Notes under the pieces: generated by a model | What the model saw: only the letters and a program-made list of their open reading frames with translations | Told to the model about the DNA's origin: nothing | Database searches by the model: none | Made by a program: the position numbers and the translations under genes | Shown here: in pieces, positions 1,876-39,085 of the stretch | Position numbering within the stretch: position 1 is the stretch's first letter | Layout: each line of letters opens with the position of its first letter | Assembly: GCA_013815345.1 (NCBI GenBank) | Contig: JACDGK010000001.1 | Span: 3,076 to 67,075 of the forward strand | Length of the DNA: 64,000 bases | Source of the DNA: Patescibacteria group bacterium | Lineage (GTDB): Bacteria; Patescibacteriota; Minisyncoccia; Phycocordibacterales; Phycocordibacteraceae | Direction of reading: 5' to 3'

Positions 1876-2394
1876 TTACCGCGTAAGACGTTCGTTAACC
1901 AATGTTATTTCGTGATCGATACCTTGGATGAGTTCGTACTTCGAAATCTCCTCAACGGTTATCCACGCATACTCGGTCGCGTCATTGTCCAAAATTACTT
2001 CTCCGTCGATGTATTTACAATAAAAACTGAGAACAATGGCGGGCACACCATCGGGTCGAATGAACGCCACGTCGAGAAGATATTCGATGTTTTCGACTTC
2101 GAGTCCTACCTCTTCTTTGATCTCTCGCCGCAGAGCTTTCTCGACGGCGTTATACCATTGCGGACTCTCATCATTCTGGTGAGTTGCTTTAGTCTTGAGA
2201 TAATCGTCTACATTCAGACCTCCTCCGGGAATGGTCCATTTGTTTGGCCACGCTTTTTTATGCGGCGAACGTTTGGTGATGAGATAGGAATAGATTCCCT
2301 TTTCATCCTTCTTCCAGATAATTCCCGTGATCGCGATGCGATGCAACTCCTGATGAATTGGACTTGGCGCTGCGGATACAGGGGCCGTCGCCAT
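1876..2394 (-). CDS. NUDIX hydrolase
   Basis: Nudix box PGGGLNVDD...EKALRREIKEEVGLEV. Confidence 0.8.
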   Translation of the reverse strand: MATAPVSAAPSPIHQELHRIAITGIIWKKDEKGIYSYLITKRSPHKKAWPNKWTIPGGGLNVDDYLKTKATHQNDESPQWYNAVEKALRREIKEEVGLEVENIEYLLDVAFIRPDGVPAIVLSFYCKYIDGEVILDNDATEYAWITVEEISKYELIQGIDHEITLVNERLTR

Positions 2395-2401
2395 AGATAA
2401 T

Positions 2402-2962
2402 TTAGAAACTAACCTTTACTGGTTCCCTTGCTGCAGCATCGGTGTCACCCAATTCAAAGAGATCCATTTTGCCAATATGGAATGAGGAGGCAATGATATT
2501 TCCCGGGAACTGTTCGATAGCGATGTTGAGATCACGCACGTTACTATTGTAGAAGCGACGAGCAGCTTGAATTTTGTCCTCAGTATCGCCGAGCTGCTGC
2601 TGGAGTTGAAGGAAGTTCTGATTAGCTTTGAGATCAGGATAAGCTTCCGAAACAGCGAAGAGAGATTTGAGTGCCCCGGTAAGCATATTTTCTGCTTGAG
2701 CTTTGTCCGCAGTAGTGCCTGCTTGCATAGCCTGCGAGCGTGCTTTCGTTACATTTTCAAATACAGCGCTTTCGTGCGACGCATATCCTTTGACGGTCTC
2801 GACCAGATTAGGAATGAGATCATAGCGGCGCTTGAGCTGCACGTCGATGTCTGCCCATGCTTCTTTGGTGCGATTTACGCGCGAAATGAATCCGTTGTAT
2901 GACACTGCGATCCAGAGCAGGATGAGAACGACGAGTGCGATGATGACGTAAAGAATGATCAT
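2402..2962 (-). CDS. lemA: LemA family membrane protein
   Basis: N-terminal TM helix followed by a conserved LemA core (NRTKEAWADIDVQLKRRYDLIPNLVETVKGYASHE). Confidence 0.8.
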   Translation of the reverse strand: MIILYVIIALVVLILLWIAVSYNGFISRVNRTKEAWADIDVQLKRRYDLIPNLVETVKGYASHESAVFENVTKARSQAMQAGTTADKAQAENMLTGALKSLFAVSEAYPDLKANQNFLQLQQQLGDTEDKIQAARRFYNSNVRDLNIAIEQFPGNIIASSFHIGKMDLFELGDTDAAAREPVKVSF

Positions 2963-3055
2963 AGGTGTGCGTTAGTGAGTGCCATAAGTATAGCACTTTT
3001 CTGGACTTGTCAATAGTTTGGAATGAGGTATAGTGTAGGTGGAAAGGAGGTCCCC

Positions 3056-3199
3056 ATGATCTTGAAAAATTGTTTCCGCGCTGCCACGGGAGTGCTCGGA
3101 CTTGCTCTCCTCGGCACCGTTGGGTTGTTTCTCTGCGCCCTCGCGCCGCTCTTGGTGAGCCGGGATGACCTGAGCGCTGCCGGCGTTCTGTGGAAATAG
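3056..3199 (+). CDS. Small hydrophobic protein (47 aa) MILKNCFRAATGVLGLALLGTVGLFLCALAPLLVSRDDLSAAGVLWK
   Basis: Strong Shine-Dalgarno GGAAAGGAGG lies 6 nt upstream of the ATG. It has a single TM-like segment and is followed by a GC-rich hairpin plus T-tract. It is below the ORF-track length cutoff. Confidence 0.4.
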   Translation: MILKNCFRAATGVLGLALLGTVGLFLCALAPLLVSRDDLSAAGVLWK

Positions 3200-3213
3200 A
3201 CTATCGCGCGAAA

Positions 3214-3249
3214 GCGCCGCGGCCCTTCGGGACCGCGGCGCTTCTTTCT
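3214..3249 (+). terminator. Rho-independent terminator (GCGCCGCGGCCC-TTCG-GGACCGCGGCGC followed by TTCTTTCT)
   Basis: GC-rich imperfect 12-bp stem, tetraloop and a T-rich tail directly after the small ORF. Confidence 0.5.
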
Positions 3250-3269
3250 ATACTTACACCTGAAGGTTT

Positions 3270-4940
<1,671 letters not shown>

Positions 4941-5255
4941 CTATTTGGTAATGACTGCGAGAATGCTGGACTCAGAAAGGATATAGTACTCCTGCTCGTC
5001 TACTTTGACTTCGTCATAGCCATATTTTGAAAAGAGAACGGTTTGTCCGACCTTAACCCCCATTGCCACGAGCTTCCCGTCTTCGGTCTTGCCAGGTCCC
5101 ACGGCGACCACGGTGCCTTTTGCGGGGCGTTCTTTGTCTGCAGTGTCAGGGATGATGATACCGAACGTTGATGTTTTTTCATCATTCTTTGATGATGGCT
5201 TCACGACGACACGATCTCCAAGAGGTGAAATCGAAAGAGTGTCTGCTTTTGGCAT
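4941..5255 (-). CDS. groS: Co-chaperonin GroES (Hsp10)
   Basis: 104 aa, ISPLGDRVVVK...GTVVAVGPG pattern, immediately upstream of groL. Confidence 0.9.
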   Translation of the reverse strand: MPKADTLSISPLGDRVVVKPSSKNDEKTSTFGIIIPDTADKERPAKGTVVAVGPGKTEDGKLVAMGVKVGQTVLFSKYGYDEVKVDEQEYYILSESSILAVITK

Positions 5256-5410
5256 AATTAAGAGATGAAATTACCGATCGTTTATAAAAATCGACGTGAA
5301 TGGCTACACGTGTGTACTATTTACCCCGGTTCGACACCGGTCGTATCTGCATTATAGAGACCTAGAATAGTCCGGTCAAGGAATGGTCCAATCTTTCTAT
5401 TTTAGATACT

Positions 5411-6230: not shown

Positions 6231-7955
6231 ATGAAGGAGCGCCTACAAAAGCTCCGCACTTTTCTCTTTGCGCGGCATTCCGTGCCGTTCTTCGCAGATT
6301 TTGCGGATTATTTGAGAGTATTGCCCCCCAGCGACCGATTCATTTTTGGTATTCTCGGTGTGCTTATTGCCGGGTTGAGTCTCATAAGCGTCTACGCGCT
6401 TGAGAAAAAAATTCTTATAACCGAACCGGTATATGGAGGGGGCCTCACCGAAGGAGTTGTCGGATCGCCTCGATTCATTAATCCCCTACTCGCGCTCTCT
6501 GATGCCGATCGGGATATTAGTGCGCTCACCTATGCAGGACTTATGGGCGAAGGTCCGGATGGCGCTCTTATTCCCGTACTCGCCGAAAGTTATATCGTAT
6601 CGCCTGATGGTAAGACGTATCAGTTCACCCTCCGAAATAATGCAAAATTTTCGGACGGCTCTCCCGTGACGGCAAACGATGTCGTCTTTACTATTCAGAA
6701 AGCGCAAGATCCTGCTTTGAAGAGTCCTGAGTACGCCAATTGGAGCAATGTCGCAGTTACCGCTATTGATTCACGTACCGTCCAGTTCACCTTATCTGCT
6801 CCGTACGCACCTTTTCTGGAAGATACGACGCTCGGTATATTGCCGGCGCATCTCTGGCGTACCGTAACCAATGATGAATTTCCTTTTTCAGACCTCGAAG
6901 TAAGGCCCGTCGGTGCAGGACCATTCATACCGAGAGAAATTGTGCGCAACAAGAATAATTCGATTACCAGCTATACGGTGACGAGCAATCCAAACTATCC
7001 TCTTGGCCGGCCGTATCTTGATTCTTTACACTTTGTATTTTTTGGAGATCAATCCTCGCTTCAAAATGCGGTCACTTCTCACGCCGTTGAGAGTGCCTCG
7101 GGGGTTACCGCTAAAAGGGTTGTCACTGCTCCGTATGCGCGCGTCTTTGCTGTATTCTTCAATCCAAAATCAGGTGACCTTTTTGCAAAGCAGCCTGCGC
7201 GGGAGGCGTTATCGGTTGCGGTAGATCGACAGGTGATCGTGAAAAATTTGCTTGGTGGCTATGCGACAGCGATTGCTGGCCCCGTGCCTCCAGGTCAAGG
7301 GGTGGTGAGTCTTCCAGTGCCCTCATCAGAAAATCGCATCGCGAGCTCCACAGCAATTCTTGAAAAGGGTGGGTGGAAACTCGATGCGGGCACGCATGAG
7401 TGGAAAAACGCTTCCGGGGAAACACTGTCGGTCACGCTTAAGACTGCGAACGTTCCCGAGTTGAAAAGGATTGCCGAAGCGGTACAAACTGACTGGAAAG
7501 AGCTGGGGATACCGACTTCACTGCAGCTCTATGAGTCGGGGGATCTCAATCAGAGCGTCATCCAGCCGCGTGCTTACCAGGCACTCCTTTTCGGCATGGT
7601 AGTAGGTAAAAGCGATGATCTGTATGATTTTTGGGATTCAAAAGAACAAGCGAGTCCCGGATTGAATCTCACCGCCTATAACAACCCTGCCGTAGATACC
7701 TTATTGACGAAGATTCGCGCGGAAACTGATCCTGCCACCCGAGTCAAAGATCTTTCAGAGGTGAATGCCTTGATCGCTGCCGATTATCCAGCGGCCTTTA
7801 TTGAATCCCCGGATTTTGTCTACGCCGTGCCAAATGATCTTAAAGGAGTTATACTGCCACAGATAACGTCGCCTGCGGACCGTTTCGCAAATGTCGAAAA
7901 CTGGTACCGACGCACTGAATCTGTGTGGCCATTTTTAGCCCGCAGTTCACGCTAA
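6231..7955 (+). CDS. ABC transporter substrate-binding protein, family 5 (oligopeptide/dipeptide type)
   Basis: N-terminal TM/signal anchor and an SBP_bac_5-like core (YQFTLRNNAKFSDGSPVTANDVVFTIQ), about 570 aa. Confidence 0.75.
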   Translation: MKERLQKLRTFLFARHSVPFFADFADYLRVLPPSDRFIFGILGVLIAGLSLISVYALEKKILITEPVYGGGLTEGVVGSPRFINPLLALSDADRDISALTYAGLMGEGPDGALIPVLAESYIVSPDGKTYQFTLRNNAKFSDGSPVTANDVVFTIQKAQDPALKSPEYANWSNVAVTAIDSRTVQFTLSAPYAPFLEDTTLGILPAHLWRTVTNDEFPFSDLEVRPVGAGPFIPREIVRNKNNSITSYTVTSNPNYPLGRPYLDSLHFVFFGDQSSLQNAVTSHAVESASGVTAKRVVTAPYARVFAVFFNPKSGDLFAKQPAREALSVAVDRQVIVKNLLGGYATAIAGPVPPGQGVVSLPVPSSENRIASSTAILEKGGWKLDAGTHEWKNASGETLSVTLKTANVPELKRIAEAVQTDWKELGIPTSLQLYESGDLNQSVIQPRAYQALLFGMVVGKSDDLYDFWDSKEQASPGLNLTAYNNPAVDTLLTKIRAETDPATRVKDLSEVNALIAADYPAAFIESPDFVYAVPNDLKGVILPQITSPADRFANVENWYRRTESVWPFLARSSR

Positions 7956-29669: not shown

Positions 29670-30950
29670 TTATTTACTTGGCAAAATGTTCCAAAGATTT
29701 TGATCTTCTCCTCCGTCTAGTTTAAAAATGGCTACTCCGCGAATACCGAGCTTTTTCGCGAGCGCGATCTTTTGCGCAATTGAGGTCGCATCGCTCCAGG
29801 TCATATAGCGGAACGTTCCGGGAAGCGCGTTTGTACTTTCCGCAGCTTGCGCAACCGCTACGCCGGCCGAAGCCGTCAAAAAATTTGCTGTCGTTGAGGT
29901 CGCAGGGGAGGTTCCTGCTGGTAGTACCGCCGGTGTCGTAGTCGGTATATAGGAAACCGCCATTTCTCCTACGCTATTACGCAGGGGCGTCTTATTGAAT
30001 GCACTGGCGAGCTGTGTTGCATATTTGAGGTTAAACGACCATAAAAGATTGTAGAGATAGCCACTCCCCTTTGCGTACGGTGTTACGTCATATTCGTAGC
30101 CGTAGGTAGCAACGCCCATTTCCATTTTGCTTGGCGCGATGCTTTTCTCCATAAGCTGCACCACGGAGGTGATCCACGCCGGATCAGCTACTGGTGTGTA
30201 GATAGTATTCCCTGCTGCCGCATTCAGTTTTTTGTCGGCTGATTCTTGATCATACGTCATAATACGGACTCGATCGCAGTATTTGTTTATAGCTGAAAGA
30301 TCATTGGCGTATTGAAACTGGCCAAGCGGCTTAGTCGTATTAAGTTCTTCAGGAGGCGTACGAGCTTCGATGGTGCACATAACCCACTTACTGCCCATTG
30401 CAGTATAAAGCTGTTTTAAGAACTGTGAGAAATAATTTATATCTGAAGCTTTTTTGCCCTCATAATCAATATCGACGCCGTCAAAGTTGTTTTGTTTCAC
30501 CATTGCAACGATAGCTGCGACATGCTGCGCGCGAAGTGTGGGGCTACTCAATATGTGGTCGATCGCATTTGTATTACTCCACATTACCGTGGGAACAACC
30601 CGCACATGCTGCGCATGTGCGGCCGTAATAAGTGGTGCCCAGGTTGACGTCGCACTGTTGAGATTCGCCGCATCAAAAAGCGTGCCGTCAGTTTTCACCG
30701 TATAGCCAAAAGGATTAATTTCCGTGAGTTTATTTAAATGTGGCAAGACGTCGGCTGTGGAAGTAGCCACTCGCCAATACGGAAGCCAGCCAGAAACCTC
30801 GAATGGCCGCGTGGTGGTAGCGGCGAACGCTAGCGAGGGCATGCTATTTCCGAGCAGCACTGCCAGAAATAGAATGAGGCAAGCAGGAATGTTCCCTAGA
30901 CCCATTTTCAAAAGAAGCGATTTGACCATGATACCTATAGTATACGGCAA
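29670..30950 (-). CDS. Secreted glycoside hydrolase family 18 (chitinase/spore-cortex-lytic-like)
   Basis: Signal peptide and GH18 catalytic motif FDGVDIDYEG (DxxDxDxE). Confidence 0.75.
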   Translation of the reverse strand: MPYTIGIMVKSLLLKMGLGNIPACLILFLAVLLGNSMPSLAFAATTTRPFEVSGWLPYWRVATSTADVLPHLNKLTEINPFGYTVKTDGTLFDAANLNSATSTWAPLITAAHAQHVRVVPTVMWSNTNAIDHILSSPTLRAQHVAAIVAMVKQNNFDGVDIDYEGKKASDINYFSQFLKQLYTAMGSKWVMCTIEARTPPEELNTTKPLGQFQYANDLSAINKYCDRVRIMTYDQESADKKLNAAAGNTIYTPVADPAWITSVVQLMEKSIAPSKMEMGVATYGYEYDVTPYAKGSGYLYNLLWSFNLKYATQLASAFNKTPLRNSVGEMAVSYIPTTTPAVLPAGTSPATSTTANFLTASAGVAVAQAAESTNALPGTFRYMTWSDATSIAQKIALAKKLGIRGVAIFKLDGGEDQNLWNILPSK

Positions 30951-30992
30951 AATAAGCTCTCAATGAAATAATTCTGAAGAATATCTAAATCT

Positions 30993-32121: not shown

Positions 32122-32280
32122 ATATTTGTATTCTATCATTATTCTTATTGCCAACGCTTTGTTTTTCCACGAGATAAAAAATTAATGAATTTAAAATAAA
32201 GATTATCTGTACAAGTTGTCCCATTGTTTTTTCCTAAAATTCCTTGTTACCGTCATTGTGGTTGCTACAATCAAAAAACC

Positions 32281-32952
32281 ATGCGAGCACTCGTTATCGA
32301 TGACGAAGAAGGAGTACGAAATATTCTATGTCAACATTTGCGTTCAGAATGTTTTGCCGTCGATGCTGCAGAAAATGGTACGAAAGGTTCCTATCTCGCT
32401 CGCACCAATGACTACGACATTATTATTCTCGATAATATGATGCCGGAGAAATCAGGGGTGCAAGTATGTGAAGAGATACGACGAACCGGCCGCACCATGC
32501 CCATACTCGTATTATCCGTTCTTGGAGAGACCCGTCAAAAGGTAGAACTTATCAATGCGGGAGCAGATGATTATATGATCAAACCTTTCTCTTTTGATGA
32601 GCTCATGGCTCGAGTTCGCGCGCTTATGCGACGTCCACCAAACCTCGAGGGCGATCTTCTAAGCATTGATGATCTTACCCTCGATACGAAGCAACAGAAG
32701 GTGCAACGTGGAGAGAAAGGCATATATCTTACGCGTAAAGAATTCATGCTTCTTGAATACCTTATGCGTAATGAGGGTGCGGTGCTCTCGCGTGGAATGA
32801 TCATGGAACATGTATGGGATATGTCGAGTGACCCTTTTTCAAATACCATTGAATCTCACATTTTGAGTTTGCGTAAAAAGATCGGTGATGTTGCTGGCTC
32901 TCGATTAATAAAAACGGTGCCAGGACGTGGATATACCATAGGTCTTTCATAA
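32281..32952 (+). CDS. OmpR/PhoB-family response regulator (receiver plus winged-helix DNA-binding domain)
   Basis: MRALVIDDEEG..., DYDIIILDNMMP Asp region and C-terminal trans_reg_C motifs (LTRKEFMLLEYL..., RLIKTVPGRGY). Confidence 0.85.
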   Translation: MRALVIDDEEGVRNILCQHLRSECFAVDAAENGTKGSYLARTNDYDIIILDNMMPEKSGVQVCEEIRRTGRTMPILVLSVLGETRQKVELINAGADDYMIKPFSFDELMARVRALMRRPPNLEGDLLSIDDLTLDTKQQKVQRGEKGIYLTRKEFMLLEYLMRNEGAVLSRGMIMEHVWDMSSDPFSNTIESHILSLRKKIGDVAGSRLIKTVPGRGYTIGLS

Positions 32953-33064
32953 AACTTCATAAGTATTTTATCTTTCTTTGAGAATTCATATATCTTCCAC
33001 TTGCTAACTTTCTCTATAGATCGTTCTTTGTAAGCTGTTTGTCAGCAAAAAAAGGAATTATTCG

Positions 33065-34036
33065 ATGAACGTCATAGAATTTATCGACATTCCGAAGTCA
33101 CTAAAGAGAGGATGTGTGCTGCGATTCATACCGAGAAACCCCGATCCTAAGTATTACGCTCAAAGAATCGATCGTAATCTGGGAGTGATAACGGGGGAAG
33201 AGCAAGAAATTCTTCGTAATTCAGTAGTGGGTATTGCGGGGACGGGAGGGATGGGAGGTCTCATCGCTGCTCAGTTAACCCGAGTTGGCATTGGTGAAAT
33301 TCGAATTGCCGATAGCGAAACATTCGATGTTTCGAACATTAACCGACAATTTGGTGCACTTCGCACCAATATCGGTAAATCGAAAGCTCTTGAGACAGCG
33401 CGGATGATACGGGCTATCACTGATGACGTGACCCTTGAGGTATACCCTCAGGGAATTACGGAAGAAAGCGTAAAGACTTTCGTTAGTGGTTGTGACGTTA
33501 TCTGCGACGAAATAGAGTTTCTCGCCATCGACGCTCGCATCCTTCTGCATCAGCAGGCACGTACCCACAATGTCTCGCTTCTCAATTGTAATTCGGTCTG
33601 GTTCGGTTCTTATCTCTTTCTCTATACACCGCAAAGCATGACGATGGAAGAAGCTATCGGCTTATCGTATGAAAAAGCAAAAGAGTTGCGATACAAAGCA
33701 ATGACCGGAGACATTGAGGCTGCTGCGCTTATTATCAAAAGAATGACTCGGGCGGTAGCTCCAGGGCTGCCGGAATACCGACCACATGCGACAGAAACGG
33801 ATCATCAGGCATTTTCCCGAAGACTTTACGAAGAAGGAAGGGTGCCCATTTTAGGCACTAATCCTCTCTTTGCTGCAGGATTCTTAGCTGATCGACTCGT
33901 CTTGTATCTTTTACGGAAATCGGGAACACCGCGAGAGATTAGACTCCTTCCCGAAATGCCAGGATATCTCTATATGGATGCAGCCTGCGTAGAGGGAAAA
34001 TTCAGCACGAAAGGGTGGTTTGATGATGTCTGTTAG
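33065..34036 (+). CDS. ThiF/MoeB-family E1-like adenylyltransferase
   Basis: Rossmann GIAGTGGMGG, NINRQ and D..V..SN motifs. It has no CxxC zinc pairs and a roughly 45-aa N-terminal extension. Confidence 0.75.
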   Translation: MNVIEFIDIPKSLKRGCVLRFIPRNPDPKYYAQRIDRNLGVITGEEQEILRNSVVGIAGTGGMGGLIAAQLTRVGIGEIRIADSETFDVSNINRQFGALRTNIGKSKALETARMIRAITDDVTLEVYPQGITEESVKTFVSGCDVICDEIEFLAIDARILLHQQARTHNVSLLNCNSVWFGSYLFLYTPQSMTMEEAIGLSYEKAKELRYKAMTGDIEAAALIIKRMTRAVAPGLPEYRPHATETDHQAFSRRLYEEGRVPILGTNPLFAAGFLADRLVLYLLRKSGTPREIRLLPEMPGYLYMDAACVEGKFSTKGWFDDVC

Positions 34037-34586
34037 TAACCCATTAATCACAGCTTCCATTGTCGTGACCCAAAAGGAACATGATGAGGCTATTGTCTAC
34101 ATAGAGAGTTCTATGAGAAAGATATTTCGCTGCGAACCGCCGCCCACGCGCGGAGCCATCTGTATCGCTCGAATCCATGACAGAATCGTCGGGAGCTTGG
34201 TGCTGCAGAGCACCAAGCACGATTGCCCATTCCCGATCGAAGATCACTACGATTTCGACCCAAAAGAGATGCCATTTCCTTTCTCTCGAAGCGAGGTGGT
34301 TCAGGCTACAAGGTGGATAGCTACGGAACCGGGCGTCTCTCTTCGCGTTGTAAAGGCATGTGGGTGGATTGCGCACGGTTTCGAGAAACGATACATGTTT
34401 ATCGAAGCCAAACCGTATTCCGTAGAACGCCTTTGTGAATTAGGACTTGATTGCCGGATTGTCAAAAATGCCGTCCTTGTACCCGAACGGGTACGAGAAT
34501 CAGTCGGTGAAGCAGGGATATTCTACTACACCGAACATCCTTTACCAACTCTCTGTATATTTCCGATTGCACCTCTTCTTATCTAG
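34020..34586 (+). CDS. Hypothetical 188-aa protein, possibly a GNAT-fold LuxI/N-acyl amino acid synthase-like acyltransferase
   Basis: Pattern ...AICIARIHDRIVGSLVL..., ...SEVVQATRWIA... and ...ERLCELGLDCRIV resembles the Acetyltransf_5/autoinducer-synthase fold. It overlaps the E1-like gene by 17 nt. Confidence 0.35.
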   Translation: MMMSVSNPLITASIVVTQKEHDEAIVYIESSMRKIFRCEPPPTRGAICIARIHDRIVGSLVLQSTKHDCPFPIEDHYDFDPKEMPFPFSRSEVVQATRWIATEPGVSLRVVKACGWIAHGFEKRYMFIEAKPYSVERLCELGLDCRIVKNAVLVPERVRESVGEAGIFYYTEHPLPTLCIFPIAPLLI

Positions 34587-34625
34587 TCGTGCATTAATCA
34601 CAGTAGTATGAGTAACTGCATACTT

Positions 34626-34655
34626 CGTCCTCGGCATGCCGAGGACGTCCTTTTA
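34626..34655 (+). terminator. Rho-independent terminator CGTCCTCGG-CATG-CCGAGGACG followed by TCCTTTT
   Basis: Perfect 9-bp stem plus a T-tract after the 188-aa gene. Confidence 0.55.
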
Positions 34656-34669
34656 AAAAACTATGGTGA

Positions 34670-36733
34670 ATGCGAAAATATGAAAGACTCTTTAGCTCAA
34701 TGATCACTCTCGGGCAAGCGCTCCTCCTTTCTATCAATGCCGTTAATCTCGGTATCGGTCTATGGGTTCTTATCAAAAATCCGCGGCAGCGAGTTAATCT
34801 TTCATTCTTTATTTTTATCTTGGGTATCACGGCGTGGTCGGTAGGAATATCGCTGCTCTACATTACCCATGATTTTCAGTACGACAAACTTGCTCTAGGA
34901 GGAGGACTGCTTATGCTTTTCGGACTCACGTTTTTCGCACGTGTTTTCGCAAATGACAAACCACTCACCGCCCGATTCTTTGTGCTTTTCACTCCTCTTA
35001 TCGTTGGTGTTGCGTGTCTTCCTTTCAATGTATTCATACGAGGTATGACCGTAGATGCCCAGGGTTTCATTCAGCCGGTAAATGGTCCTCTGTTCCCTTT
35101 TTATCTCTTACTCGCTGTCGGCTATTTTTTAATAGGGTTCTATCTTTTTGCCTATAATTTCGTTCATTCGACCGGAAAAGCGAAACTACAAATGCGTTAT
35201 CTGGCGACGGGCATTATAATTTTTATGAGTGCGGTACTGCTATTCAATGTGTTTCTTCCTTCTTTTGGCATCTATCGATTAAATCTTTTTGGACCCGCTG
35301 GTTCCGTCGTGTTCGTAACACTGACCAGCTATACTATCGTGCGCCACCAACTCATGGACATACGGGTTGCTATACAACGAGGCGCCTTTTATTCATTGCT
35401 TGTTTCGCTTATTGTATCCGCCTATGTAGCCCTGCTCATGGTTATGGTGGAGCTATTCGATACCGGAGAACGAGTCGCGATACTGGTATCGGCAACCATC
35501 ATAACCATCTTCGGTATCGTGACGGTTCCTCCTATTGAAAGATATTTTCAAAAGGTGACCGATCGATTCTTTTTTAAAAACAAATATAACTACGCACTTG
35601 CTCTTGAGAAATTAAGTGTCGTCTTAAAAGATAATATACGATTTTCTCGACTTGTTCCTCTCATTTTGCGCTCACTTCAGGATATTCTAAAACCAACTTT
35701 TATTGAGTTTGCTCACGCAAGCACAGGCAAGGTGTTTGATCTTGAAAATCATACTTCCGCACGACGTGCTCCTCGCGGTATGTCAAACAATGGCTTACAA
35801 ATATCGATTGTGTCACGTAAACGCAGCGTCGGCACTTTTACCTTCGGTCCCAAACGATCGGGAGATCCCTATACAAGCGAAGACCATATGTTATTGCGCA
35901 CATTTGCGAGCCAAGCCTCGGTTGCATTCGAAAAGGCTGAGCTGTACCAGGAGCTCCAAACCTACTCCGAATCTCTCGAACAGAAAGTGGGTGAGCGCAC
36001 ACAGAGGATTCTTAAACTTCAAGAGCAGCAACGTCAACTTTTTGACGATATTTCACATGCACTTCAAACACCTCTTACCGTACTCAAGAGCGCCTTGGAA
36101 TCAATGAATCGAGAAAAGATAGTGTCGGAGAAACGTGCGGTGGAGTGTATGGAGCACAGTCTCGACGACCTTTCAGCCAGAATACGAAATCTCCTTCAAC
36201 TTGCTCGCATTGATGCCGTTCCGATGGATGAGCAAAAAGAATGTGTTGATATAGGACTTTTAGTTGCAGCTGTTATTGAATACGTTGAAGTGATCTGTCG
36301 AGAAAAGGATATTACTGTACGGGTTACTCTTGAACCTGGTCTCATTATATTTGGAAACAAAAAACAAATTGAGGAACTGATCACGAATCTACTAAGCAAT
36401 GCCGTGCGCTATACAGGATCATGCCTCATACGAGAGATAAGCGTGGCAGTGAGAGCAAGAAAGAAGGATGTTGAATTCGCTTTAACTGATACGGGCATAG
36501 GCATTGCGAAAGATCGACTTCCTTATATCTTCGATCGTTTTTATCGTGCGGGTGATACAGATTCCGCCTCTGGGGGATATGGTCTCGGTCTCGCGATTAG
36601 TAAAAGTATTGCAGAAAGAAACGCAGGTACTATATCAGTGAGTAGTACCTACGGCAAAGGCACACGTTTTATAGTACGTTTCCCTCGAGTGTTTCCGGGA
36701 AAAGATCTAGTAAAAGACGTCGCGAATGGATAA
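34670..36733 (+). CDS. Sensor histidine kinase with an N-terminal polytopic (about 7 TM) domain, HisKA and HATPase_c
   Basis: H-box FDDISHALQTPLT, N-box LLSNAVRYT, G1 DTGIGI and G2 GGYGLGLAIS. Confidence 0.85.
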   Translation: MRKYERLFSSMITLGQALLLSINAVNLGIGLWVLIKNPRQRVNLSFFIFILGITAWSVGISLLYITHDFQYDKLALGGGLLMLFGLTFFARVFANDKPLTARFFVLFTPLIVGVACLPFNVFIRGMTVDAQGFIQPVNGPLFPFYLLLAVGYFLIGFYLFAYNFVHSTGKAKLQMRYLATGIIIFMSAVLLFNVFLPSFGIYRLNLFGPAGSVVFVTLTSYTIVRHQLMDIRVAIQRGAFYSLLVSLIVSAYVALLMVMVELFDTGERVAILVSATIITIFGIVTVPPIERYFQKVTDRFFFKNKYNYALALEKLSVVLKDNIRFSRLVPLILRSLQDILKPTFIEFAHASTGKVFDLENHTSARRAPRGMSNNGLQISIVSRKRSVGTFTFGPKRSGDPYTSEDHMLLRTFASQASVAFEKAELYQELQTYSESLEQKVGERTQRILKLQEQQRQLFDDISHALQTPLTVLKSALESMNREKIVSEKRAVECMEHSLDDLSARIRNLLQLARIDAVPMDEQKECVDIGLLVAAVIEYVEVICREKDITVRVTLEPGLIIFGNKKQIEELITNLLSNAVRYTGSCLIREISVAVRARKKDVEFALTDTGIGIAKDRLPYIFDRFYRAGDTDSASGGYGLGLAISKSIAERNAGTISVSSTYGKGTRFIVRFPRVFPGKDLVKDVANG

Positions 36734-37034
36734 GAGACTCGAGCATAAAGGTTAACTGCTGTTCGTCATCTAACGTGTATCGCTTTTGCACATTCCCAAA
36801 ATTCTTCAGTTCTTCCTGAAACTTGTAGATACCGGCACCAAAATAGCTCGGCAGGGAGTGTGGACCAAATTCTTCCCACAAACGATCGTCGACTACGTCG
36901 AGCATTAATTCATCTCGCAAAAGTCCAAACACTTTTGCATAGGGTGAACATATAGCTACTCTTCCCTCCTGATTTGAACGCCGATAGGTCTGTACTACGT
37001 TTTCATTCTTCGCATCGTGAGACATCATTTTCAT
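36669..37034 (-). CDS. Hypothetical protein (121 aa)
   Basis: Protein-like composition immediately downstream of RadC on the same strand. It overlaps the kinase 3' end by 65 nt, which lowers confidence. Confidence 0.35.
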   Translation of the reverse strand: MKMMSHDAKNENVVQTYRRSNQEGRVAICSPYAKVFGLLRDELMLDVVDDRLWEEFGPHSLPSYFGAGIYKFQEELKNFGNVQKRYTLDDEQQLTFMLESLIHSRRLLLDLFPETLEGNVL

Positions 37035-37852: not shown

Positions 37853-38896
37853 TTATTTACAGCCTAACCGTTGGTTTGCAATGCAATACGTTGCCATAGT
37901 CCAATGACCATTCGTGATTATTCTACTTTTAATAATCCCGTTTCTCATGAGTGATGTGAGATAATCCGCCTGAAAACTCCGCACTGCCGTTTCTGTCATT
38001 TTTCCGAAATAAGTAGTTGTGCGATCTTGCTTCATAAAGCCGGCGCTCATCAGAAATGCTTGTATGACTTTTATTTGAGTACTTCGGGAACCGCGGACGA
38101 ACGTCCGTGAAAAATAAGGACAGAGCGGCGGATAGGTGATAGTAGGTTGATCTGCATTTATCTTCTGGGTGGTGCTTCCCACAGAGAACATGGTTTGTGT
38201 GTTGACTGGAGAATTCTTTGACATAAATGCATTGCCACTAGAATTACTGAAGCTGCTTCCTGCTCCTCCACTTCCCGAAAATGGGATACCCGGAATTGAA
38301 GGAGCGATTGAAACGATACTGGTTGAACTCTCTGACTGAGTGTCTACAGGAGCAACAGGCGTATTCGTCGCTTCGACAGACGTTGATGAAGATGAAACGA
38401 GTACAATGTTGTCGAAGTTGAAATTCGAAAGCGCCAATAAGGGTAGTTCAAATCCATATCTCATCACGGTGCTATGTGTTGAGGTCGCGGTTTGCTCCAG
38501 ATTTATCGTTACTTGAGTCCATTCGTTCGCAGGTACGGAAGGAAGAGGGTACGAATTCGTACTACTCCCGAGTGATTGAATATCAGAGAAAAGATCAAAA
38601 TGTATCTCACCTAAATCTACCAAGCGACTACTTCGTATCCAGAGACTGATACCGGTGTAATTCGACCAGTCGTGTGGGACATCGAAACCAAAATAGAGTG
38701 TTCCTACTCTGTCACCATTTGTGACACTCGCCTTTAAACTTCCGAGTCCTTGCACTTTTTGGATTGAGTCGGTGAAGAATGATATGAATGAGGGTGTATT
38801 CGTATTCCATGCCGTTGTCGAATCCAAAGAATCAAGAACTAAGACCGTCGTACTACCTTCATCTGCATGTACCGCTTGTGTCGGTATAAAGAACAC
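37853..38896 (-). CDS. Protein with a C-terminal peptidoglycan-binding (PG_binding_1-like) domain. The N-terminal signal peptide appears split by a frame break (ATG at 38943).
   Basis: GSRSTQIKVIQAFLMSAGF...YFGKMTETAVRSFQ matches the PG-binding domain. Main-frame translation starts only at GTG 38896, right after a TAG. An ATG at 38943 in the -1 frame encodes MSFTLRLFSAALFF. Confidence 0.6.
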   Translation of the reverse strand: MFFIPTQAVHADEGSTTVLVLDSLDSTTAWNTNTPSFISFFTDSIQKVQGLGSLKASVTNGDRVGTLYFGFDVPHDWSNYTGISLWIRSSRLVDLGEIHFDLFSDIQSLGSSTNSYPLPSVPANEWTQVTINLEQTATSTHSTVMRYGFELPLLALSNFNFDNIVLVSSSSTSVEATNTPVAPVDTQSESSTSIVSIAPSIPGIPFSGSGGAGSSFSNSSGNAFMSKNSPVNTQTMFSVGSTTQKINADQPTITYPPLCPYFSRTFVRGSRSTQIKVIQAFLMSAGFMKQDRTTTYFGKMTETAVRSFQADYLTSLMRNGIIKSRIITNGHWTMATYCIANQRLGCK

Positions 38897-39085
38897 ACCC
38901 TAAAGAACAAGGCTGCACTGAACAATCGTAACGTAAAGGACATAACGAAAAGAGTTAAGTCTTATAACCCCTTTCCCGCTGACTAGTATAAAAAGAATCA
39001 CCTCACCGACTTCTCAAGAAAATCTAAAATCTTTATGAAATTTATTACTGCGATTCGTTGCAGTCACTTTCACAACAGTAGGCGA

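Follow-up and report, generated by a model that had tools for sequence, protein, structure and literature searches.

A 64 kb stretch of a Patescibacteria metagenome-assembled genome (the window) carries side by side the genes for an OmpR/PhoB-family response regulator (RR), a ThiF/E1-like enzyme, a GNAT-fold acyltransferase and a multi-transmembrane (TM) sensor histidine kinase (HK; Table 1). The locus is an oxidase-less ThiF/N-acyltransferase pair that includes an unrecognised GNAT family, is wired into a dedicated two-component system (TCS) and is widespread in Patescibacteria. We read it as a Patescibacteria-wide cassette in which two coupled enzymes make a small molecule that is under the control of the TCS and to which the TCS probably responds, and we regard this reading as about evenly poised between right and wrong. 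Its product, in the best reading, would be a TCS-controlled compound of N-acyl-amino-acid or azlactone type, perhaps an autoinducer, and the arrangement suggests a self-made chemical signal encoded with its own detector. An earlier note on this DNA had delimited the same four open reading frames (ORFs), and all were recovered, those of the RR, the ThiF-like protein and the HK by Pfam. Of its two proposals, small-molecule synthesis coupled to a TCS is still the best reading, whereas modification of a protein or peptide C-terminus fell away, as there is no ubiquitin-like protein (Ubl) and the gaps could not take in a conserved precursor gene.

Related loci were gathered by a pattern scan over one genome per species, which gave 80 loci whose ORFs were called and searched with our own hidden Markov models (HMMs). 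Counts are given over 51 non-redundant Patescibacteria-type loci (a few labelled otherwise), and the denominators are the loci with room for the feature. A GNAT gene adjoins the ThiF gene in 43/49 loci, a kinase with the same multi-TM sensor half (residues 1-440 of the window HK; about 1e-27 to 1e-134) lies downstream in 40/47, and an OmpR-type RR gene stands upstream of ThiF in 30/45. All four genes occur in the same order in 28 of the 43 fully flanked loci, an arrangement far beyond chance, and all-against-all clustering of the neighbours finds only these four families to be widely conserved. The earlier note would have given up its proposal had the four genes not been co-conserved; they are, so the proposal stands on this point. 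Median gaps are 105 nt between the RR and ThiF genes and 43 nt between the GNAT and HK genes. Accessory genes found in some cassettes encode S-adenosylmethionine-dependent methyltransferases (five loci), an amidinotransferase-like protein, and MFS transporters after the kinase.

Patescibacteria are abundant epibionts whose genomes are minimal and most of which have not been cultured; very little is known of how they sense their partners or one another. Because the four genes are retained across many minimal-genome lineages, the cassette likely matters to the lifestyle of these organisms. Three of its traits appear to be new, namely the lack of a flavin desaturase, the embedding of the enzymes in a dedicated TCS and the unrecognised GNAT family; we found no paper that ties ThiF, this GNAT family and a TCS together in Patescibacteria.

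Table 1. Positions in the window of the cassette genes, of candidate regulatory elements and of two nearby genes preceded by the same motif
Feature	Position	Strand	Basis
OmpR/PhoB-family RR (receiver and winged-helix DNA-binding domain)	32281-32952	+	Pfam
TTTA-type triple direct repeat, candidate RR binding site	32967-32992	+	Gibbs motif and position weight matrix (PWM)
TATAGA, -10-like hexamer	33015-33020	+	Read from sequence
ThiF/E1-like ATP-dependent carboxylate-adenylating enzyme, 323 aa	33065-34036	+	PF00899
188-aa GNAT-fold acyltransferase, acyl-homoserine lactone (AHL)-synthase/N-acyl-amino-acid-synthase type	34020-34586	+	Fold, profile comparison
Intrinsic-terminator-like hairpin and T tract in the GNAT-kinase gap	34626-34657 (hairpin 34626-34647)	+	
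Multi-TM sensor HK, 687 aa	34670-36733	+	Pfam, hydropathy
GH18 glycosyl hydrolase gene	29670-30950	-	Pfam, 5.4e-28
Motif match directly upstream of the GH18 gene	30964-30989	-	Leave-one-out PWM, 17.4
347-aa protein with a PG_binding_1 domain	37853-38896	-	PG_binding_1, 1e-06
Motif match about 107 nt upstream of the PG_binding_1 gene	39003-39028	-	Leave-one-out PWM, 18.5

The ThiF-like enzyme and its acyltransferase partner

The ThiF and GNAT genes overlap in 34/43 unfused loci (median -10 nt), and in the window the overlap reads as translational coupling. There are also several ThiF-GNAT fusions of 495-526 aa, in the order ThiF then GNAT, and locus L013 holds such a natural fusion. The C-terminal half belongs to the 188-aa family in fusions P0034, P0071, P0086 and P0102, and is Acetyltransf_5, Autoind_synth or FeeM by Pfam in P0052, P0060, P0078 and P0085. 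Because the genes overlap and natural fusions exist, the two proteins almost certainly share one substrate.

The 17-nt overlap described in the earlier note holds if the 188-aa ORF is read from its first in-frame TTG at 34020; ATG codons follow at 34023 and 34026. In the public annotation (P0001) the gene starts at Met32 and encodes 157 aa, a start that leaves the GNAT fold without its first beta-strand and without most of helix 1. The 188-aa form is the real ORF, since homologues align from about residue 8 and residues 11-36 form a strand and a helix that the AlphaFold2 model predicts with confidence.

Neither Pfam (even at E<=10) nor NCBIfam returns a match for the 188-aa protein, and its GNAT kinship is seen only through structure and profile-profile comparison. 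Its AlphaFold2 model is of high confidence (predicted local distance difference test score 96.8), the top structural matches are AHL synthases, and its structural neighbours include TofI, FeeM, RpaI and MesI. Profile-profile comparison relates the family to the FeeM/Autoind_synth-type domains of the fusions (86.7%, E 4.3e-6), and a profile search of PDB sequences with the family gave marginal GNAT matches only (best E=0.056). On these grounds the GNAT call of the earlier note was correct, and the three peptide strings that it quoted are present in the translation. A word-index search found only four relatives; an exhaustive profile search recovered 292 cluster representatives at E<=1e-3, nearly all of 180-210 aa. 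Of 138 family members scanned, 51 touch PF12261 (T_hemolysin, best 1.4e-8) and 29 touch PF21926 (FeeM, best 1.9e-6), placing the family, as judged from these profiles, between PF21926 and PF12261 in the GNAT clan. We found nothing usable in the literature on the biochemistry of PF12261/T_hemolysin. The family defined here appears to be new and is missed by current domain libraries.

The profile searches that the earlier note had called for gave a split result: the ThiF-like protein matches PF00899 (4.5e-29), but the 188-aa protein matches neither PF00765 nor any other Pfam model. As that note had described, the ThiF-like protein retains its Rossmann GxGxxG motif (GTGGMGG at residue 59) and NINRQ (residue 91), has no CxxC zinc motif and bears an N-terminal extension, of about 35 aa (Y..ER.DRN.G), which is conserved in its clade. 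A CDEIE motif follows at residue 147, and the protein has the traits of the PF00899 superfamily (Rossmann-like fold, GxGxxG loop, Arg finger and Mg-binding Asp). We identified 355 homologues at E<=1e-10, mostly in Patescibacteria. The NCBIfam equivalog models for ThiF and MoeB score 48-78 bits, below their cut-offs of 152-376, and the Rv1355c-family model scores 80 bits. No ThiS, MoaD, ThiG or MoeA gene lies within about 5 kb of the cassette, in agreement with the earlier view that the context is neither thiamin nor molybdopterin. We rejected a role in these pathways on the sub-threshold ThiF/MoeB models, the missing CxxC and the lack of pathway genes or of an ORF ending in GG nearby.

The best sequence match to the ThiF-like protein among solved structures is TcdA/CsdL (7.7e-12), the dehydratase that converts N6-threonylcarbamoyladenosine (t6A) to cyclic t6A. 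Like TcdA/CsdL, the ThiF-like protein is E1-like and would adenylate the carboxylate of an N-capped amino acid and cyclise it without a ubiquitin-like partner. Unlike it, TcdA/CsdL acts on a tRNA nucleoside and works without an acyltransferase partner, and the N-terminal extension of the window ThiF clade is missing from it. The top structural neighbour is AclA (PDB 9egb), on which we found no usable literature; others include enzymes of ThiS/MoaD systems, MccB, PaaA and Cap2.

Other members of the wider ThiF clade, which share the N-terminal extension (Y..ER..RN.G), occur with N-capping enzymes and exporters in many phyla. In Rhizobium etli (L087, pRetIE4771a) the gene is found with a GNAT N-acyltransferase, a DMT transporter, an EctB-like aminotransferase and a fatty-acyl-CoA ligase. 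In Bacillus cereus (L088, FRI-35 p01) it accompanies a formyltransferase and an MFS transporter, in small plasmids of Staphylococcus epidermidis (L086, pSE45A5-4) a carbamoyltransferase-like protein that is split and has an STRTR motif, together with an MFS transporter, in actinomycetes (L053/L056) and Herbaspirillum (L072) an ornithine carbamoyltransferase-like protein and an MFS transporter, and in Legionella and Pseudomonas an alpha/beta hydrolase and an MFS transporter. Since ThiF proteins of this clade pair with acyl-, formyl- and carbamoyl-transferases and with exporters across many phyla, the wider clade suggests a common theme, a ThiF enzyme acting on an N-capped amino acid, and a general function as "N-capped amino acid cyclodehydratase".

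The clusters L086, L088, L087, L053/L056 and L072 are compact, combining an ArsR regulator, an N-capping enzyme and an exporter, and their ThiF proteins have the same N-terminal extension. They resemble small-molecule pathways, as yet uncharacterised, that combine an N-capped amino acid with a ThiF cyclase. Legionella norrlandica (L034) and a gammaproteobacterial metagenome-assembled genome (L032) carry an overlapping pair of ThiF and 188-family GNAT genes without a TCS, about 44% identical to the Patescibacteria ThiF; in L. norrlandica genes for an alpha/beta hydrolase and an MFS transporter come after the pair. Gene comparison of this kind suggests that the enzyme module has been exchanged horizontally between the Candidate Phyla Radiation (CPR) and other host-associated bacteria.

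The two-component system and a conserved promoter motif

The RR (Response_reg 1.4e-26, Trans_reg_C 1.2e-24) and the HK (HisKA 1.3e-10, HATPase_c 8e-26 and a weak GAF_2) together have the domains of an OmpR-type TCS. The 7-TM sensing domain that the earlier note had assigned to the HK is recognised by HisKA_7TM (29.3 bits; cut-off 28.6). This N-terminal domain is followed by two more TM segments, a GAF-like region, the DHp domain, in which His463 lies within a conserved DISHxLQTP motif, and the catalytic ATPase domain. Hydropathy and a comparison of conservation in 34 orthologues also reveal a conserved YxIxRHxLxDIR motif at residues 221-232. One Paceibacteria contig (L010) has two tandem 7-TM kinases of the cassette type after the GNAT gene (1930-4062 and 4068-5353).

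Upstream of the ThiF gene are three TTTA-type repeats with about 11-bp phasing, TTTATCTTTCTTTGAGAATTCATATA, which end 72 nt before the ThiF ATG and are separated by 22 nt from the TATAGA hexamer. A Gibbs sampler run on the RR-ThiF spacers of 27 loci returns a triple-repeat motif with the consensus TTTAttTTTTcTTTAgAAaTatTTTA and an information content of 13.2 bits, versus 8.5-8.8 bits in shuffles. Scored with leave-one-out PWMs, 21/27 of these spacers exceed the 95th percentile of the controls, which were 250 other intergenic regions from the same loci (Mann-Whitney p=1e-13). The copy in the window's ThiF promoter scores 11.6 bits and ranks fifth in the 128 kb of two-strand sequence. Among the 32 strong sites in all loci, 16 are upstream of thif and six are upstream of one family of genes encoding proteins of about 150 aa. 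OmpR/PhoB-type regulators bind direct repeats at helical phasing, and we infer that the cassette RR binds the repeats in front of ThiF.

The window's two best matches to the motif precede the PG_binding_1 and GH18 genes. Judged by these sites, both genes are possible regulon members, by which the TCS might control cell-wall or host-interaction functions.

The family of about 150 aa adjoins the cassette RR in 11 Patescibacteria loci (L028, at 6649-7095 on the minus strand, L013, L026, L031, L033, L035, L037, L043, L048, L051 and L052) and has no counterpart in the window. It has no Pfam match and shares the motifs IIFAGKKxSGALEIIDLA...LCDHD...DGH..C.E. It looks like a further regulon member, because the same TTTA-repeat motif precedes 6/11 copies.

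The terminator that the earlier note had placed after the 188-aa gene is seen as a GC-rich hairpin, with a 9-bp stem containing seven G-C pairs, and a T tract (TCCTTTT). GC hairpins followed by T tracts recur in the GNAT-kinase gap of at least nine loci (including L016, L022, L028, L029, L031, L033, L049 and L050), and therefore the ThiF-GNAT pair looks like an insulated, inducible unit.

A possible product and alternative readings

The earlier note took the pairing of a ThiF-like enzyme with an acyltransferase for an undescribed system. This does not hold, as the oxazolone pathway already joins an N-acyltransferase to a ThiF-like cyclase in OxzAB of Pseudoalteromonas rubra (bioRxiv 10.1101/2020.06.11.147165) and in TyzACB (Rv2336-Rv2338c; PMC10404671) and TrzAS (Rv1356c/Rv1355c; PMC12856293) of Mycobacterium tuberculosis. 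With acyl-CoA as donor, OxzA, TyzA and TrzA place an acyl group on the nitrogen of Tyr, Phe or Trp; the ThiF part uses ATP to close this product into a ring, which a flavin oxidase of the nitroreductase type then desaturates (bioRxiv 10.1101/2020.06.11.147165; PMC10404671; PMC12856293; review PMC12596934). In TrzS, cyclisation comes first and the saturated ring builds up when the oxidase is crippled or O2 is limiting (PMC12856293); a saturated 5(4H)-oxazolone is therefore within reach of a ThiF cyclase that has no oxidase.

As in the oxazolone systems, the gene for a predicted GNAT-type N-acyl-amino-acid synthase here adjoins a ThiF-like gene, the two are operonic or overlapping, and methyltransferases are occasional neighbours, as they are in clusters of Stieleria (PMC12479983). 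Unlike in those systems, no flavin oxidase is fused or adjacent, so no 4-ylidene (unsaturated, coloured) product is expected. Furthermore, ThiF is fused to the acyltransferase here and to the oxidase there, the acyltransferase is of a separate family that Pfam does not recognise, the enzyme pair sits within a TCS, and the hosts are Patescibacteria.

Based on the fold and the family, the 188-aa GNAT would carry out the first step, moving an acyl group, probably from an acyl-CoA or acyl-acyl carrier protein (ACP) thioester, onto an amino acid to give an N-acyl amino acid, as FeeM, OxzA, TyzA and TrzA do. Homology, the fusions and the oxazolone precedent point to a second step in which ThiF would adenylate the alpha-carboxylate with ATP and the amide oxygen would attack, yielding a 5(4H)-oxazolone (azlactone). 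The wider clade speaks for this chemistry: the ThiF of L084 (Vicinamibacterales), which is flanked by a methyltransferase and a nitroreductase, passes PRK08223, the NCBIfam model nearest to the window ThiF, with 384 bits, and other relatives adjoin the N-capping enzymes and exporters described above. With no flavin desaturase to act on it, the ring would remain saturated and reactive. Its possible fates are use as a labile signal, reopening to an N-acyl amino acid that may be racemised, and acylation of another nucleophile. In a third step, which the conserved promoter motif supports, the RR would bind the three 11-bp-phased repeats and drive the ThiF-GNAT unit, which the terminator would insulate from the kinase gene; the GH18 and peptidoglycan (PG)-binding genes may be further targets. 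Finally, and this is the weakest step, which we infer by analogy, the multi-TM kinase would sense the lipophilic product in the membrane and close an autoinduction loop analogous to LuxM/LuxN, CqsA/CqsS and Agr.

The comparison with these circuits is based on gene content and order. Like LuxM/LuxN, CqsA/CqsS (LqsA/LqsS) and agrBDCA, the cassette has a synthase gene beside that of a polytopic membrane HK, a cognate RR, and a motif before the synthase that is compatible with autoinduction; synthase, putative receptor and regulator are encoded together in the 28/43 loci given above. Unlike them, it has different enzymes and a different presumed signal chemistry, its RR is of the OmpR type and encoded upstream, its synthase operon is insulated by a terminator, and its signalling is predicted from genes.

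A part of this arrangement has been listed before, a second respect in which the system was not undescribed. In CPR genomes, Bernard et al. (2020) obtained 36 hits with LuxI HMMs, of which 18 lay beside a "putative sensory kinase", and proposed AHL quorum sensing (PMC7567580). Their Table S4 entry OGI92353.1/OGI92354.1 (Nomurabacteria RIFCSPLOWO2_01_FULL_42_20) has the genome and gene order of our locus L033. Their adjacencies, for which a complete quorum-sensing system was proposed, are the same cassette in at least one case. They caught a minority variant that LuxI HMMs can detect, whereas the window's 188-aa family is undetectable with those models, and they make no mention of the ThiF gene, the RR or the promoter motif (PMC7567580).

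Several points weigh against the azlactone pathway and its sensing. Product, substrate and binding are all predictions. To our knowledge, Patescibacteria generally lack fatty-acid synthesis, and the acyl donor is thus a difficulty. The best NCBIfam model for the window ThiF, PRK08223, scores 145 bits, below its cut-off of 266. No flavin oxidase (nitroreductase), the third and defining enzyme of the known oxazolone pathways, is found among the conserved neighbours of the 51 loci, and a jackhmmer search with the L084 nitroreductase returned nothing in the window or any CPR locus. Most cassettes have no exporter, the RR is missing in about one third of the loci, the enzyme pair stands without a TCS in L001, L023, L032 and L034, and ThiF and kinase occur without GNAT in L041 and L044. 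The TTTA motif is AT-rich and its assignment to the cassette RR is indirect.

The main rival keeps the enzymes and gives up the loop. Here the TCS would sense an external, host-derived or envelope cue and switch on ThiF-GNAT, whose product, for example an antimicrobial, a compound that modifies the membrane or cell wall, or a reactive donor of acyl groups, would not be the ligand of the kinase. The motif-like sites before the GH18 and PG-binding genes suggest an envelope or host-interaction regulon of this sort, and the pair is found without a TCS (L001, L023, L034) and with exporters in other phyla. The role of the known oxazolones is itself unresolved (bioRxiv 10.1101/2020.06.11.147165; PMC12856293). 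On the other side, the synthase is nested between RR and kinase in 28/43 loci, a layout typical of autoinducer circuits, and a lipophilic ligand of the cell's own making would suit a 7-TM sensor embedded in the membrane; neither argument decides the matter. We consider regulation of an effector by a cue other than its own product unlikely, with a chance that is far from negligible.

The chemistry could also run in reverse, with ThiF adenylating a free fatty or amino acid and the GNAT using the acyl-adenylate directly, so that an amide forms without CoA or ACP. Such a route would dispose of the difficulty over the acyl donor in a lineage that apparently lacks fatty-acid synthesis, it matches the gene and fusion order of ThiF then GNAT, and tight translational coupling fits the channelling of an unstable intermediate. 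We know of no GNAT that uses acyl-AMP, and thioesters serve as donors for TofI, FeeM, RpaI and MesI, which neighbour the 188-aa GNAT in structure. All characterised ThiF/N-acyltransferase pairs run in the opposite order, with the acyltransferase acting on acyl-CoA (PMC10404671; PMC12856293), and we regard the reversed order as improbable.

Classical AHL quorum sensing, in which the GNAT would make an AHL from S-adenosylmethionine and ThiF would be incidental, draws on the top structural matches of the GNAT, which are AHL synthases, and on the FeeM-type variant of the cassette that Bernard et al. listed as a LuxI homologue with a kinase (PMC7567580). Against it, the window protein has no PF00765 match and none of the 138 family members matches this model at E<=0.01. 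The acidic E-x-D-x-x-D segment of the FeeM/LuxI-like fusion domains is replaced by CEPPPT in the 188-aa family, as read from inspection of alignments only. Moreover, ThiF is adjacent, overlapping or fused in most loci, which AHL synthesis leaves unexplained. We therefore find AHL synthesis very unlikely, and this corrects the earlier AHL-based reading of the same CPR loci.

That ThiF activates the C-terminus of a ubiquitin-like protein or of a ribosomally synthesised and post-translationally modified peptide (RiPP) precursor, with the GNAT as a tailoring enzyme, is in our view extremely unlikely: ThiF-like enzymes do so in the ThiS/MoaD, MccB, PaaA and Cap2 systems, all structural neighbours, but the flanks of the window cassette, where the earlier note had suggested looking for a short ubiquitin-like ORF, hold no genuine ORF ending in GG, there is no E2, JAB or sulfurtransferase partner and no CxxC, the conserved gaps (medians as above, with ThiF and GNAT overlapping) are too short for a precursor gene, and no fifth gene family is conserved across loci. 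Both Ubl/E1 conjugation and the RiPP reading were rejected on the missing GG-ending ORF, the short gaps and the lack of a further conserved family.

Returning to an N-acyl-amino-acid or azlactone product under TCS control, a fuller version, which we put forward as doubtful, would make the cassette a widespread and self-contained circuit by which CPR cells signal to each other. In it, the ThiF-GNAT pair would form a reactive, saturated azlactone or an N-acyl amino acid as autoinducer, without oxygen or a flavin oxidase; the 7-TM kinase would read it, and the RR would act back on the promoter of the synthase and turn on genes for the cell wall and for host interaction. If true, the signal chemistry would be new, and the CPR would have its first quorum-sensing system with a defined mechanism. 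The role of oxazolone and N-acyl-amino-acid lipids is unknown even in M. tuberculosis, and the link of their chemistry to a dedicated sensor and regulator gives a testable hypothesis, that such molecules are signals.

Neighbouring genes

Around the cassette are genes for BipA, GH18, YceG, RadC, the PG_binding_1 protein, DUF1295, GIY-YIG and an ABC ATPase. A 121-aa ORF (36669-37034, minus strand) is convergent with the kinase gene and shares 65 nt with the 3' end of that gene; neither Pfam nor NCBIfam returns a match for it. Relatives of about 100 aa lie between the kinase and RadC genes in three other loci, including L029, and L004 has an ORF at the same kinase-RadC position.

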